Below, piece by piece: positions 26,201-32,200 of a stretch of 64,000 nt of DNA (position 1 is its first letter; the number at the start of each line of letters is the position of its first letter). Origin of the DNA: a plasmid. The stretch is from assembly GCF_057098645.1 (NCBI RefSeq), contig NZ_JBXSPU010000003.1; one strand, written 5' to 3'. Made by a program: the position numbers.

Positions 26201-29200
26201 TGCAACGCCCTCAGTATCAACACCTCTTGCTTCAATGTCCTTCAGAATATCTCTTACTGCATTTACAGAAAGAGCCTCCTGATTTCGTGGGTTCAGAGGG
26301 TGTACTGTGGTTTCCAGTTCCACCTTTTCCGCCGGAACAATGATGTGTTCCGCCTCAAGCTTCCGCCCATTGTGTAATGTAAAAAGTTTCTTCAGGCGTG
26401 GCTGACCTTTCAGGCCTTGAAGCCCGGAGCGATGGATTACTTCAGTACGCTTAGGCGCATTAATATAACGGGATTTGTCGTTCCCGATATGCTGCTCATC
26501 ACTCATACATTACCCCCTTGCTTCACTGAAAAACTCTTAATCTCATTAATAAATTGCTGGTAGACCGCCATCACGGATTCTTCGGCAACATCAAGCTGTT
26601 TGGGAGAGCAGAGCTCTTCTGATTTTTTGATATCCAATACGGTTCTACCCCTAGAAGCTGCGGCTTTAAACGCTTCTGAGTTTTTGATATTTGCAGACAT
26701 AAAGAGTTCCTGCACTGTCCTTACCAGTTTATCCAGGACAATCTTTTCATAGGGACTCTTATCGTCGACATTCACTGCCAACACTTTGAACCAGCTTAGA
26801 TTTTCGCCCTTGCTCGGCGATTGTTTGAATCGCTCACTGATCGTCAACATGAAATCAGTTGTTGAGGCATAATCATACTCACGAGGTGAAACGGCAACCA
26901 AAATGCCATCAGCAGCTTCATCCGCTGCCCATGTGATTGGCGAATCTTCTGGTGGAGTATCGATAATGATCAGGTCGTACTTGCTCTTCAAGACCGGCAG
27001 GATTACCTCTTTAAAACGTAGTAATAACTCAGTTCGTTCTTCTCTGGAACACTGCCAGTATTTATCTTTGAAACGTGCATCTGTAGGGAATGCGGTAATA
27101 ACATCAAGATTCGGAAGGTGTGTTGAAAAAGGCATACCTTCAATAATTTGTTCTTCCGAGTACCCTAAATCAAGATATTTTCTGTAATCTGAGTCTTCTT
27201 CGTAAACCCCTAAGATGGCGTCAATAGCAGTCAGGAAAACATCATCTTCCGCTACGCTCTGGATCATCCCGCTTCCAATAGACCCTTGTGGGTCCCATTC
27301 GATCAACAGTATCCGCGCGTTTAGATGCAAATCAAGTGCTGCCGCAACTGCAAGAACGCCTGAAGTTGTACTCTTCCCCGTACCACCCTTATGGTTCTGC
27401 GTTACGATTGTACGGCTACAGTAGAAGTCGCTATATCGAGGATAGTTCAGAGCATCCATTATTTTCTGGACATCCCAGCGGGTATAGAGATGGTTTTTGT
27501 TCTGGTAGATAGGAGCACCAACCAGTTCTTTTTCTTCAAGATCCGCTAAGATTTTGTTAAAAGTTACGCGAGATTTACCAAAAAAATCTGACAGATTTTT
27601 TTTATTCAAGCAGTGGTTATAGATTAGGCGATCAACACCGTCTACACTATCATCCGATACCGAAACCCTCGAAGAGACCAATAATGACTCTTTCAGAGAG
27701 ATCTGCTCGCTCTTCATGCGTTGACCGACAAGGGCGATCTTATCAATTAGATTCATTCTCTTCCGATCCCTTTTACCTAAATAGTGAAATTAAACGTATA
27801 TACGTAAACTTTACGCATAATGCGTATACTTTAGCGTTATGCGTTTAATAGTAACCTTAATTCTATTATTACGCTAACGTTCTGTATTCTTTTCTTAGAT
27901 TTTGGAATATCTGCATTATTGAATTTCAATTGGCAGTTGATTGAAGTCTTCCAAAAGCCTCTTAAGTATCAACAATACCAATCTTCCGACATAGCAGGAT
28001 CACTCCATAGATGTGGCAATAAGGGGGGTAAATCCCACGGTACCCGACCAGCATTACCCCATAGCCTGGCGATTAAGGGGGTTAAATGCCATGGTACGAG
28101 ACCAGCATTCCTCCATGGCCTGGCGATTAAGGGGGTTAAATGCCACGGTACCCGACCAGCTTCCCCATGGCCTGGCGATTAAGGGGGTTAAATGCCACGC
28201 TACGCGACCAGCTTCTCCATGGCCTGGCGATTAAGGGGGTTAAATGCCACGCTAAGCGACCAGCTTCCTCATGGCCTGGCGATTAAGGGGGTTAAATGCC
28301 ACGCTACGCGACCAGCTTCTCCATGGCCTGGCGATTAAGGGGGTTAAATGCCACACTACGCGACCTGCTTCCCCATAGCCTGGCGATTAAGGGGGTTAAA
28401 TGCCACGCTACGAGACCAGCTTCCCCATAGCCTGGCGATTAAGGAGGTTAAATGCCACGCTACGCGACCTGCTTCTCCATGGCCTGGCGATTAAGGGGGT
28501 TAAATGCCACACTACGCGACCTGCTTCCCCATAGTCTGGCGATTAAGGGGGTTAAATGCCACGCTACGAGACCAGCTTCCCCATAGCCTGGCGATTAAGG
28601 GGGTTAAATGCCACGCTACGCGACCAGCCTCCCCATGGCCTGGCGATTAAGGGGGTTAAATGCCACGGTACCCGACCAGCTTCCCGCCATGCTCTGGCGA
28701 TTAAGGGGGTTAAATGCCAGGATACGCGACCAGCATTCCCCATGGTCTGGCGAATAAGGGAGTTAAATACCACGGTACCTGACCAGCATGACCCCATGTC
28801 CTGGCGATTAAAGGATTAAATGCCACGCTACGCGACCAGCCTCCCCATGGCCTGGCGATTAAGGGGGTTAAATGCCACGGGACACGACCAGCTTTCCTCC
28901 ATGGTCTGGCGATTAAGGGGGTTAAATTCCATGGGACACGCCCAGCTTTCCTCCATGGTCTGGCGATTAAGGGGGTTAAATCCCACGGTACCCGACCAGC
29001 TTCCCGCCATGCTCTGGCGATTAAGGGGGTTAAATGCCAGGATACGCGACCAGCATTCCCCATGGTCTGGCGAATAAGGGAGTTAAATACCACGGTACCT
29101 GACCAGCATGACCCCATGTCCTGGCGATTAAAGGGTTAAATGCCACGCTACGCGACCAGCCTCCCCATGGCCTGGCGATTAAGGGGGTTAAATGCCACGG

Positions 29201-32200
29201 TACCCGACCAGCTTGCCTCCATGGTCTGGCGATTATGGGGGTTAAATCCCACGGTACCCGACCAGCAGGCACCGTGGTCATTGGCTAAAGGGGAAATTGC
29301 CTCGGCTTGCAGACAGGACAACGTGACGCCCTAGCGGTTAAGTGGGTTTAATACGACGGTACACAATAAGTATCCCACCAGAATCTGTCTATTGAGTGGA
29401 TTAGATTAAAAGATATTCGGCCTGGATCTCGACTTAGAATGACGAAATATTTGGCAAAAAAATAGGGTATTCGGCAAATCCTGTTGTTAGGACATCCCGA
29501 ATACCCAAAAAATATTTGGCAATCAATATGAATTGCCCATACCCCCAATTGACAATAAAAGAGTTTTTTGGCAATTCGTATAATTAGGCCAATTCATCCG
29601 TGTCGTCTATTGCACTAACGAAGTATTCCGTGCGGTAGTCATCTCCCCCCCTCAACTAGACTGAAGGTGATCCATCTTTTGCAAGCGTACGGTCACCTGA
29701 CACGCTGTCCGCTCGTACAGGAATTGTCATGCATTCTTTAATGGTATCTGCTTCAGCCACGTGTCCAGTACACTGGTTTTCAAATCCAGCAACTACTACA
29801 TACGCATCCGGGTCGAGCCTTTTAAGCTGGTCTATAAGCTCTTTTACTTTTATGGGTTACCTCTACGTTTTTGTATATTTTATCACGCTGAACGGAAGGG
29901 CGAATAACTGTAGTGAAACAAAAAAAGTTTTGGCCGGAAAACCTTTTAGACTGGCTTTCCTTTAGCAAAGAACTGGTGAATAGGGGAGCAATTCCGCGCT
30001 ACGCAACCAGCATCCCATCGTGTACAGACGAGTAAGTGGTTAAATGGCCTGGTACCCGGCAATAATCCCTCCATGGTCTGCCGATTAAGGGGTTAAATGC
30101 CACAGTACCCGACCAGCTTCCCCCCATGGTCTGGCGATTAAGGGGGTTAAATACCACGGGACACGACCAGCTTTCCTCCATGGTCTGGCGATTAAGGGGG
30201 TTAAATGCCACGGTACGCAACCAGCTTTCCTCCATGGTCTGGCGATTAAGGGGGTTAAATGCCACGGGACACGACCAGCTTTCCTCCATGGTCTGGCGAT
30301 TAAGGGGGTTAAATTCCATGGGACACGCCCAGCTTTCCTCCATGGTCTGGCGATTAAGGGGGTTAAATGCCACGGTACGCAACCAGCTTCCCTCCATGGT
30401 CTGGCGATTAAGGGGGCTCAATGCCACGGTACCCTACCAACTTTCTACCATGGTCAGTCGATTCAAGTGGTTAAATTTCGTTATTGAATAAGCTTAAAAT
30501 GGTTTCTTATTCCAACCAGAAAGTTAGATGGTTAAGTTATTATGGAGATAAGACCTGATCTTACTTGTTTTTTGGTTGTTTTAACAAACCATTCACCTTA
30601 ATAATATCTACGCATCGCATAACAGTTGCATTCTCAAATCTAATTAACGTATAGTTTATACAACCATCATCTAGATATTAGATCCAATTATTTCAAAGAC
30701 TTAAAAGAAAAAACGATAAATTCATCTATATAATGGTTATTTATTATAACCGTAAAAATGATGTTTGTATCTGCCATACAAAAACCACACCCCCTTGGTT
30801 GGTTCTTGTACCCAAAACATAATACCTGATCTGATTAACTTCACAGCAAAAGCCTGGTAGGGAGAATAATTCTGGAGTAAATTTCATCATATTCATTCAC
30901 CTTCAAAAGAAGAATGACAAAGGCATCGAATTTCATGTATGACGGTTTGAGAGGACTTAATCCGAGCTAGATATTCTTAACCCGGGCTATTATTTCGGGG
31001 GAGGGCAGGCAATGACAGCTAACAACTATTTACTTCAAAGACGTACTGGATACCTCAGTCAAAACAAAATGAGGTAACCAGTAACTTAAAACGTCAGGCA
31101 GCTGATTTGCTCGCAACTTCCTGTTCGTACAGAATCTCAATTGCTTCGCCGTAAGAGCAATCAAGTCGGCTTTGGATTTCCCATAGTTTTCCACGATCGG
31201 TGCTGTCAGTCGTAAAGCAAAGCTCCATTTTTCTATCTACATAGAGGCGACATATCTCCTGGAAATTTTCGAATCGTACGAGCATCTCGGAAAATGCACG
31301 CTTTACCGTTCGAATATTTTTCATACGCTCATATTCCGCATCAGTTGTGGAGAAGTAGTTGTTCACCTTCATGGCTTCAATACTTTCCTTTTCCTGCTTC
31401 ATGATGATCTTCCACGGCGAGTTAGCCGTTAGTGCGCGACCAACCGATGAGGTGAAGTAATCTTCAAAGGATTGAGTAATACAAATACCGGCACAGTTCG
31501 TTTTCCTGAATCGGCGCCAAGCGGCCTCAAGGAAAGAGGAGAAAAATTGATTTGAATGATTACTGGAACCTGAAGCATTGTCCGGACGGATATACTCCCA
31601 TGCCTCATCAAGTATGAACAACCGGCGGCGTCCGTCTTTCTTGATAAACATTGCATGCTGAGCGGCCTGAATAATCGACATCAGAACGACAGTCTGAAGG
31701 TGTGGGGTCCCCTTCAATTCTTCAAGTTCCAGAACAATAAACCGGCTATCAAAATTTATTGGCGGGAGATTTTCTGTAAAGCGATTCCCATAAATCCCTC
31801 CTTCACACCATTGCCCCAACTGGTCACCGATATCTTTAATACGCTTATCTTCATGGTTAGAACAGCGTCGCGCAAATCCAGTAATAGAGCCTGTACGTCC
31901 AACTTTGCGTGATTCGTTATATTCTTCACTAATCAGTTGCAGCATGACCGATTGTTGAAAATCATCAATATTTCCTTTTTCAGATGCCATTATTTTTAAC
32001 TGGTTTAGAACCATAATGGTCTGGGCTACTTTATCCTTATCATCATCATGATTATTTGAATCGTCATTAAAGACAGGTGCTTCATCAAAAACACGCTCTC
32101 CAACAGTCACATCAGTCAAAAATGCGAATGGATTTAGCGTAAAATCAGGCTTTTTCCCAAAGTCTATAAACTGACTATTAGTATATTGTTCCGAAATACC

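Follow-up and report, generated by a model that had tools for sequence, protein, structure and literature searches.

A probable centromere of the Par1 partition system in two tandem repeat arrays upstream of parA on an R27-type IncHI1 plasmid

Two arrays of a tandem repeat with a unit of about 53 base pairs (bp) lie upstream of the partition gene parA in a 64,000-nucleotide stretch of plasmid DNA (contig NZ_JBXSPU010000003.1 of RefSeq assembly GCF_057098645.1; this whole stretch is called the window), and the question raised by this locus is what function the arrays serve. As judged from its sequence, the window is the Tra2/partition region of an R27-type IncHI1 resistance plasmid. [quoted passage not shown] Based on the comparisons presented here, we consider it probable (roughly 0.8) that the arrays are the centromere (parS) of Par1, the parA-parB system of this plasmid. 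Most likely they represent a high-valency parS that precedes a parAB operon of type Ia, and the locus would thus be a well-known kind of system in a variant layout.

The repeats were located with Tandem Repeats Finder (TRF) and by scanning for a 23-mer, GGCGATTAAGGGGGTTAAATGCC, with up to 5 errors, relaxed to up to 7 errors for decayed units. TRF delimited array 1 at 28020-29266 (period 52, 23.6 copies, 87% matches) and array 2 at 30068-30476 (period 54, 7.6 copies), the latter also with a higher-order period of 162 bp. With the 23-mer, array 1 was resolved into 24 units and array 2 into 8, and the relaxed scan added decayed units starting at 29283, 29333 and 30457 (Table 1). Thereby we confirm the two arrays upstream of parA that a first-pass annotation of this DNA had described, along with its positions for parA and parB; its estimate of about 33 copies compares with 32 good and about 3 decayed units in our count. 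Its start of array 2 at 29985 takes in a very decayed unit and has to be moved to 30027, where the first recognizable unit begins, while the array itself stands.

The units measure 54 bp (13 units), 52 bp (10), 53 bp (5) or 51 bp (2), with a mean period of 52.97 bp, which corresponds to 5.04 helical turns. They all have the same orientation as parA, with one core sequence per 51-54-bp unit. A 17-mer from this core, AACCCCCTTAATCGCCA, was found 30 times in the window when up to 3 mismatches were allowed, compared to 0.2 matches expected by chance. All 30 matches were located on the minus strand within the two arrays, and no copy of the core was detected outside of them in the 64 kb at this threshold. 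Within the arrays, the core is better kept than the linker (major-allele frequency of 95% vs. 81-84%). The parA-proximal part of array 1 (28122-28641) is made up of a very homogeneous 52-bp subfamily. Its distal part contains units of 51-54 bp and a higher-order duplication of about 320 bp (28642-28961 resembles 28962-29281), and the units of array 2 belong to the same 54-bp subtype as this distal part.

The 21-bp core of each unit, ATTTAACCCCCTTAATCGCCA, reads ATTTAAC-CCCC-TTAAT-CGCCA on the parA strand and consists of an A-like box, an inverted A-like box and an exact B box, TCGCCA, which resembles the layout of the right half of parS of phage P1. The P1 record annotates parS as B1 (TCGCCA), A1 (ATTTCAC), a site for integration host factor (IHF), A2 (ATTTCAA), A3 (GTGAAAT), B2 (TCGCCA) and A4 (ATTTCAC). 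The A2-A3-B2 segment reads ATTTCAA-G-GTGAAAT-CGCCA, with the B box sharing the final T of the inverted A box. In both sites, the B box comes directly after the inverted box, A in P1 and A-like in the units (TTAATCGCCA in the units vs. GAAATCGCCA in P1). Of the 7 positions of P1 ATTTCAC, 6 are matched by ATTTAAC of the core. The B box starts 15 bp after the start of the A-like box in the core and 14 bp after that of the A box in P1, and the orientation relative to parAB is that of P1 A2-A3-B2. The first-pass annotation had noted an imperfect inverted repeat in each unit, GGCGATTAA-GGGGG-TTAAATGCC. It is present as described, with 7 of 9 arm positions complementary, and the pair can be recognized as the A-like boxes, with TGGCGA of the left outer arm being the B box. 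However, the conserved element is the asymmetric 21-bp core and not the inverted repeat, whose outer GGC/GCC symmetry is lost in related plasmids.

The adjacent parA and parB encode proteins that are 99.8% and 100% identical, respectively, to their R27 counterparts. The start of parB overlaps the stop of parA, and the arrangement of a large ParA followed by a helix-turn-helix ParB in one operon is that of type Ia. Residues 150-327 of ParB align to the structures of P1 ParB(142-333) (1ZX4/2NTZ; phmmer, E=4e-17), covering the helix-turn-helix and the dimer domain. Additionally, residues 207-328 match Pfam PF08775, a family built on the C-terminal part of P1 ParB (E=1.5e-12, model positions 1-123 of 126). 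Identity to P1 ParB is only about 27%, and the NCBIfam partition-protein model PRK13698 scored 43.6 bits, far under its cut-off of 274. The overall architecture of ParB comprises an N-terminal ParB-type region with an arginine patch, GSRRRF, that may be the nucleotide-binding motif of the ParB family, a central helix-turn-helix and, at the C terminus, a dimer domain of the P1 ParB type. [quoted passage not shown] The region of these B-box-binding loops is aligned in the ParB studied here without deletion. The likening to a sopC-type centromere made by the first-pass annotation holds for tandem units with one predicted site each and does not extend to the protein, which by phmmer and PF08775 is a relative of P1 ParB and not of SopB. 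The closest solved relative of ParA is ParA2 of Vibrio cholerae chromosome 2 (7NPD, E=8e-33), followed by ParA of P1/P7 (E=2e-8). Its alignment to the approximately 400-amino-acid (aa) ParA proteins of P1, P7 and V. cholerae chromosome 2 begins at residue ~66, and the NCBIfam models for ParA/RepA/SopA match it below their cut-offs.

We compared the locus with the parAB operons of five other lineages (ParB identity in brackets). R478, an IncHI2 plasmid (72%), carries the same 21-bp core every ~249 bp, with 13 sites in two blocks between trhC and parA; each block has the same ~230-bp tail at its end. The Citrobacter freundii plasmid CP060663 (83%) has the same core in one array of 10 units of 54 bp with a different linker, and C. 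freundii NZ_CP092464 (73%) has the core ACTTAACCCCCTTAATCGCCA in 7 units of 56 bp, which are flanked by parA on one side and an intact small gene on the other. In the Klebsiella pneumoniae plasmid PittNDM01 p1 (IncHI1B/FIB; 46%), the core is AAAACAACCCCGTTGTTCGCAG, spaced by 66 bp, with ~28 sites upstream of parA and 4 downstream of parB. The Providencia plasmid pVCSW10.1 (51%) has no array; the core AACAACCCCCTTGTTCGCCA is found once ~115 bp upstream of parA and once ~170 bp downstream of parB. When IncHI1, CP060663 and NZ_CP092464, whose units measure 52-56 bp, are compared with each other, a 22-bp core is 91-100% identical, whereas the linkers are only 44-62% identical.

The B box TCGCCA is kept in IncHI1, R478, CP060663, NZ_CP092464 and Providencia and is TCGCAG in the K. 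pneumoniae lineage. With the two most divergent ParB proteins, the arms of the core change jointly (TTAA/TTAA to AACAA/TTGTT) without losing their inversion, and both the C run and TCGC of the B box are preserved (AACAAC-CCC-GTTGTT-CGCAG in PittNDM01; AACAA-CCCCC-TTGTT-CGCCA in Providencia). For PittNDM01, an alignment of ParB revealed that the region of the recognition helix has changed as well, from GISHVSVSK to NIGIESIRK (SHVSVSK to GIESIRK), and R27 and R478, which share the core, both keep SHVSV. The sites accompany parAB regardless of the neighboring genes, given that the K. pneumoniae, Providencia and NZ_CP092464 plasmids have no trhC alongside. Conservation across lineages, co-variation with ParB and a constant link to parAB form the pattern expected of a ParB-binding site, and this same pattern is hard to reconcile with a transfer-related or replication element. 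The comparative and therefore indirect evidence of core conservation and co-variation favors the earlier proposal of tandem units that each hold a predicted ParB site, as in a sopC-like centromere placed upstream of parA. In NZ_CP006799, of the same K. pneumoniae IncHI1B/FIB lineage, a microsatellite, (AGGGC)x9, lies between the 66-bp array and parA (8655-8700 of the fetched locus), and the four further 66-bp units downstream of parB (11441-11662 of the fetched locus) mean that sites flank the operon on both sides.

Between array 1 and parA, 43 bp upstream of the parA start, there is a repeated palindrome whose sequence is unrelated to the array core (Table 1). Its TACGCATA/TATGCGTA motifs are found at the same place in R478 and NZ_CP092464, and the K. 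pneumoniae lineage has a different palindrome at this position. Because a ParA operator is annotated in the P1 record, we propose by analogy that this palindrome is likely the ParA operator. Downstream of parB, we found no core site and only a terminator hairpin.

Table 1. Positions in the window of the arrays, the par operon and associated features
Feature	Position	Strand	Basis or detail
parB, 335 aa, predicted centromere-binding protein of Par1	25499..26506	minus	homology
parA, 417 aa, large Walker-type partition ATPase (type Ia size class)	26503..27756	minus	homology
Probable par operator, 20-bp imperfect repeat and palindrome TACGCATAATGCGTA	27799..27844		TRF period 20, 2.3 copies
Array 1, 24 units each with one core ATTTAACCCCCTTAATCGCCA	28015..29282	minus	TRF, 23-mer scan
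Two decayed units, distal edge of array 1	29283..29386	minus	core with 3-6 substitutions, up to 4 deletions
Decayed small gene (89 codons)	29586..29853	minus	start ATG to ATA, codon 66 TGG to TAG
Array 2, 8 units of 53-54 bp	30027..30456	minus	TRF, 23-mer scan
One decayed unit, trhC-side edge of array 2	30457..30510	minus	relaxed scan

From these observations we infer that ParB binds the arrays and that they act in partition. Each ~53-bp unit would provide one 21-bp ParB site for one ParB dimer. The helix-turn-helix domains of the dimer would read the two inverted A-like boxes and its C-terminal dimer domain the adjacent TCGCCA, as in A2-A3-B2 of P1 parS. About 30 sites that face the same way and are spaced by almost exactly five helical turns could bring a large number of ParB dimers onto the same face of the DNA. 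A comparable one-face model was put forward for SopB on the 43-bp sopC repeats (PMC2910045), which the mean period of 52.97 bp parallels. The loaded ParB would then seed a large partition complex, with cytidine triphosphate (CTP)-dependent spreading being probable by analogy to other ParB proteins, and this complex would stimulate nucleoid-bound ParA-ATP, so that the plasmid copies are moved apart. Repression of the operon is probably exerted by ParA itself, through the separate palindrome by the parA start codon. This start is only about 260 bp away from the arrays, and ParB that is bound to them or has spread on them might also add to the repression of the par promoter, which is speculation on our part.

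Several points weigh against this reading of the arrays. The helical phasing is not general, as the 66- and 249-bp periods of the related plasmids do not amount to whole turns. The arrays lie upstream of parA, unlike the sites of P1 and F. The resemblance to P1 parS is based on a comparison of 21 bp, in which the inverted A-like box, CTTAAT, lacks one base relative to GTTAAAT. Moreover, the GC-rich linkers have no evident IHF site, as judged by eye and with no consensus pattern scan run, while P1 parS has one. Finally, a single sopC repeat suffices in F (PMC2910045), and because of this and of the two sites in Providencia, most units may be dispensable for partition.

The last point leads to the strongest alternative, namely that one or a few sites are the centromere and that the rest is surplus generated by slippage or unequal crossing-over, either as a neutral satellite or with a side function (titration of ParB, silencing of the par promoter or partition incompatibility toward related plasmids). 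The variation in unit number is consistent with it. We counted 17-mer AACCCCCTTAATCGCCA sites with up to 3 mismatches in seven IncHI1 plasmids and found, for array 1 and array 2, respectively, 23 and 7 in the window, 21 and 5 in R27, 22 and 7 in NZ_CP091605, 23 and 4 in NZ_CP099307, 24 and 4 in NZ_MG904992, 16 and at least 4 in NZ_CP023167 (where the locus ends at the end of the record), and 14 and 5 in NZ_CP081783 (where IS21 cuts array 2). These otherwise near-identical plasmids thus range from 14 to 24 sites in array 1 and from 4 to 7 in array 2, which bears out the suggestion that the arrays could be used for typing. The units beside the spacer are constant, and gains and losses occur in the parA-near 52-bp subfamily and at the trhC end of array 2. 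The data show ongoing expansion and contraction of the arrays, although part of the differences could be due to assembly collapse of repeats. In NZ_CP081783, the IS21 copy is located at the trhC-side end of array 2 (~3400 of the fetched locus) and truncates the array.

A surplus of units would also fit the decayed units at the array edges, the homogeneous 52-bp runs, the 162- and 320-bp higher-order duplications, the two single sites of the Providencia relative and the sufficiency of one sopC repeat in F (PMC2910045). On the other hand, large arrays have arisen or persisted beside related parAB in at least three formats (52-56, 66 and 249 bp), which suggests that a large number of sites is advantageous, and the better preservation of the core over the linker within the arrays likewise counts against this alternative. 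We regard this alternative as unlikely. It concerns the number of sites and not their nature and is therefore compatible with a centromere.

Extending the centromere interpretation, we tentatively consider that the IncHI-type ParB family has repeatedly amplified a P1-like half-site into kilobase arrays (52-56, 66 and 249 bp) from a two-site, ancestor-like state. The arrays would then be fast-evolving centromere satellites with their valency under selection, a scenario that we find conceivable but would not put forward as the expected one. If it were true, valency might be selected, e.g., for a ParB condensate big enough for low-copy plasmids of >180 kb, or the arrays might alternatively serve as a weapon in partition incompatibility between related plasmids. 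Their placement by the par promoter would couple the size of the centromere to par expression.

A different binding partner is less probable than surplus sites. The units could bind a protein other than ParB, such as a regulator of Tra2 transfer, the protein encoded by the spacer's small gene or a nucleoid-associated protein, and the IncHI1 and IncHI2 arrays do sit inside the Tra2 transfer region, between trhC and parA. However, the sites in the K. pneumoniae, Providencia and NZ_CP092464 plasmids adjoin parAB amid other neighbors and without trhC, the core has the P1 parS box layout with the exact B box, and the small gene is a pseudogene in IncHI1, yet the arrays are kept. It is very improbable that the units are replication iterons or a copy-control/incompatibility array for a plasmid Rep protein. 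Tandem direct repeats of about this size are typical of iterons, and a gene for a RepB-family initiator is situated ~12 kb away, but the iterons flanking rep differ (CCATTCATGCAAATGCTTTT, at a spacing of 43-44 bp), the par core was not found there, and the arrays co-occur with parAB in plasmids of other replicons. Thirteen of these iterons, at 41007-41546 and 42948-43032, flank the RepB-family (RepHI1A-type) initiator gene and are unrelated to the par units.

Equally improbable is that the repeats encode a repetitive protein, such as the annotated 142-aa open reading frame (ORF) at 29999-30427: parts of the arrays are open in frame, and some RefSeq records annotate them, but no reading frame can persist through array 1 with its periods of 51, 52 and 53 bp, the strand and position of the annotated ORFs vary between records, related lineages keep the 21-bp core and not the linker, and no context of a start or ribosome site was seen. 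RefSeq places "hypothetical proteins" in the arrays at 28192-28338, 28564-28773, 28828-29010, 29140-29334 and 29999-30427. These look like artifacts of stop-free repeats, given that their strand and position vary between RefSeq records.

The centromere reading leaves the division into two arrays to be explained. The ~700-bp spacer between them holds a decayed small gene with 79% nucleotide identity, over all 89 codons, to the gene for WP_008786584.1 of NZ_CP092464, and R27 has the same decayed copy (99.7% identical). In NZ_CP092464, the intact homologue (89 aa, MKVKELI...) is located directly upstream of the array. Judged by these sequences, the split is due to the decayed small gene lying between the two arrays. 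Because the intact gene adjoins the array upstream in NZ_CP092464, the ancestral order would have been small gene, array, operator and parA, and IncHI1 has a second block of 54-bp units beyond the dead small gene. Intact homologues of the small gene, e.g., WP_008786584.1, were also observed just upstream of a predicted parS array in ~110 other plasmids. A hairpin, GGGTATTCGG...CCGAATACCC, followed by a T run lies on the minus strand at 29465-29507. This arrangement suggests a terminator that belonged to the decayed small gene, and transcription from the trhC side would be halted by it before array 1. This hairpin was absent from the list of our consensus scan, probably owing to its long loop.

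The gene order of the locus is trhC, arrays, parA, parB, four small genes, parM, a parR-like gene and then htdA with related transfer genes. This order from trhC to htdA is that of Tra2 in IncHI plasmids. A 5.6-kb segment that includes the arrays is 100% identical to many conjugative plasmids of Escherichia coli, Salmonella, Klebsiella, Enterobacter and Citrobacter, among them many IncHI1 plasmids. In R27, the prototype of IncHI1, both arrays are present with a smaller number of units (TRF, 21.6 and 5.6 copies). A search of a phage collection with the same 5.6 kb gave no DNA match, and a phage origin of the arrays was rejected. An IS21-family element (istA, istB) at ~21210-23330, with ORFs at 21289-22461 and 22458-23258 on the plus strand, interrupts a metallophosphoesterase gene between Par2 and Par1. 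R27 and p1919D3-1 do not have this element, and its insertion shifts the coordinates of the window by ~2.1 kb relative to these two plasmids.

We also considered the arrays as the centromere of Par2 (parM/parR) and rejected this, as they are 8 kb from parM with parAB and other genes intervening. No clear repeats were found upstream of parM in the expected parC region (20118-20466). Where parM meets the parR-like gene, at 19054-19092, a 16-bp sequence, TGCAAAACCATCATCA, is perfectly repeated in tandem (2.4 copies), and R27 has this repeat as well (18771-18809). TRF further reported a 21-bp tandem repeat, CTACCCGGTATAGTGGATGAAT, with 3.7 copies at 60696-60775. A consensus scan for promoters and terminators from 25.2 to 31.2 kb returned sites no more numerous than in shuffled sequence. 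Our guess that the IncHI2 typing (pDLST) locus smr0018 might be the repeat region was dropped; the pDLST paper is silent on repeats.

Salmonella, E. coli, Klebsiella and Enterobacter harbor IncHI1 and IncHI2 plasmids with resistance to multiple drugs, colistin and carbapenems. Par1 being reported as the main stability function of these resistance plasmids, its site is of interest. The predicted ParB site, A-like boxes plus TCGCCA, would be a defined target for curing or incompatibility-based displacement, and the common core predicts cross-reaction between IncHI1 and IncHI2. Reading the units as sites also explains why spurious "hypothetical proteins" are annotated in a block within the arrays. 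With numbers that range from two single sites to ~35 in tandem, the lineages offer a natural experiment on the number of sites that a centromere needs, and the variable unit number is a possible typing marker as well as a known trap for short-read assemblies. In the accessible literature, with a search that did not reach the primary R27 and R478 reports, we found no description of the arrays, as the cis site of Par1 or otherwise, nor of the A/B-box reading of the core or of the lineage series from 2 to ~35 sites.

The locus is part of a plasmid family with a research history of decades. Among known systems, R27 Par1 is the same locus, with an identical ParB and the same two arrays (21+5 sites vs. 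23+7 here by the 17-mer criterion), and R478 Par1 has the same core at a spacing of 249 bp. IncC plasmids also have many ParB sites, with 16 inverted-repeat sites including one upstream of parA (PMC10954446), and V. cholerae chromosome 2 has a multi-site parS and a ParA2 to which the ParA studied here is related. In both cases, however, the sites are dispersed symmetric palindromes and not head-to-tail asymmetric composite sites. With P1, the locus shares a ParB that is homologous over both DNA-binding modules, the order of A-like boxes and B box and their orientation to parAB as in A2-A3-B2, and a palindromic operator (here putative) that is separate from the site and next to the parA start. 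P1 differs in having a single ~80-bp composite site downstream of parB, which an IHF bend divides, whereas the arrays consist of ~32 tandem copies of a half-site-like module upstream of parA, in which no IHF site is evident by eye, and ParA is closer to V. cholerae ParA2 than to P1 ParA.

With sopC/SopB of F, also a type Ia locus, the arrays share tandem direct repeats with one binding site per unit (here predicted) (PMC2910045) and a period near whole helical turns (43 bp, about 4 turns, in F; 53 bp, about 5 turns, here). The sopC site has 12 units of 43 bp, each with a symmetric 16-bp inverted repeat, downstream of sopB (PMC2910045), whereas the arrays have ~32 units in two blocks upstream of parA, an asymmetric site with a B box and no unit sequence in common with sopC. 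In functional terms, the arrays are a hybrid that combines the box grammar of P1 parS with the tandem layout of F sopC and are a strict member of neither.

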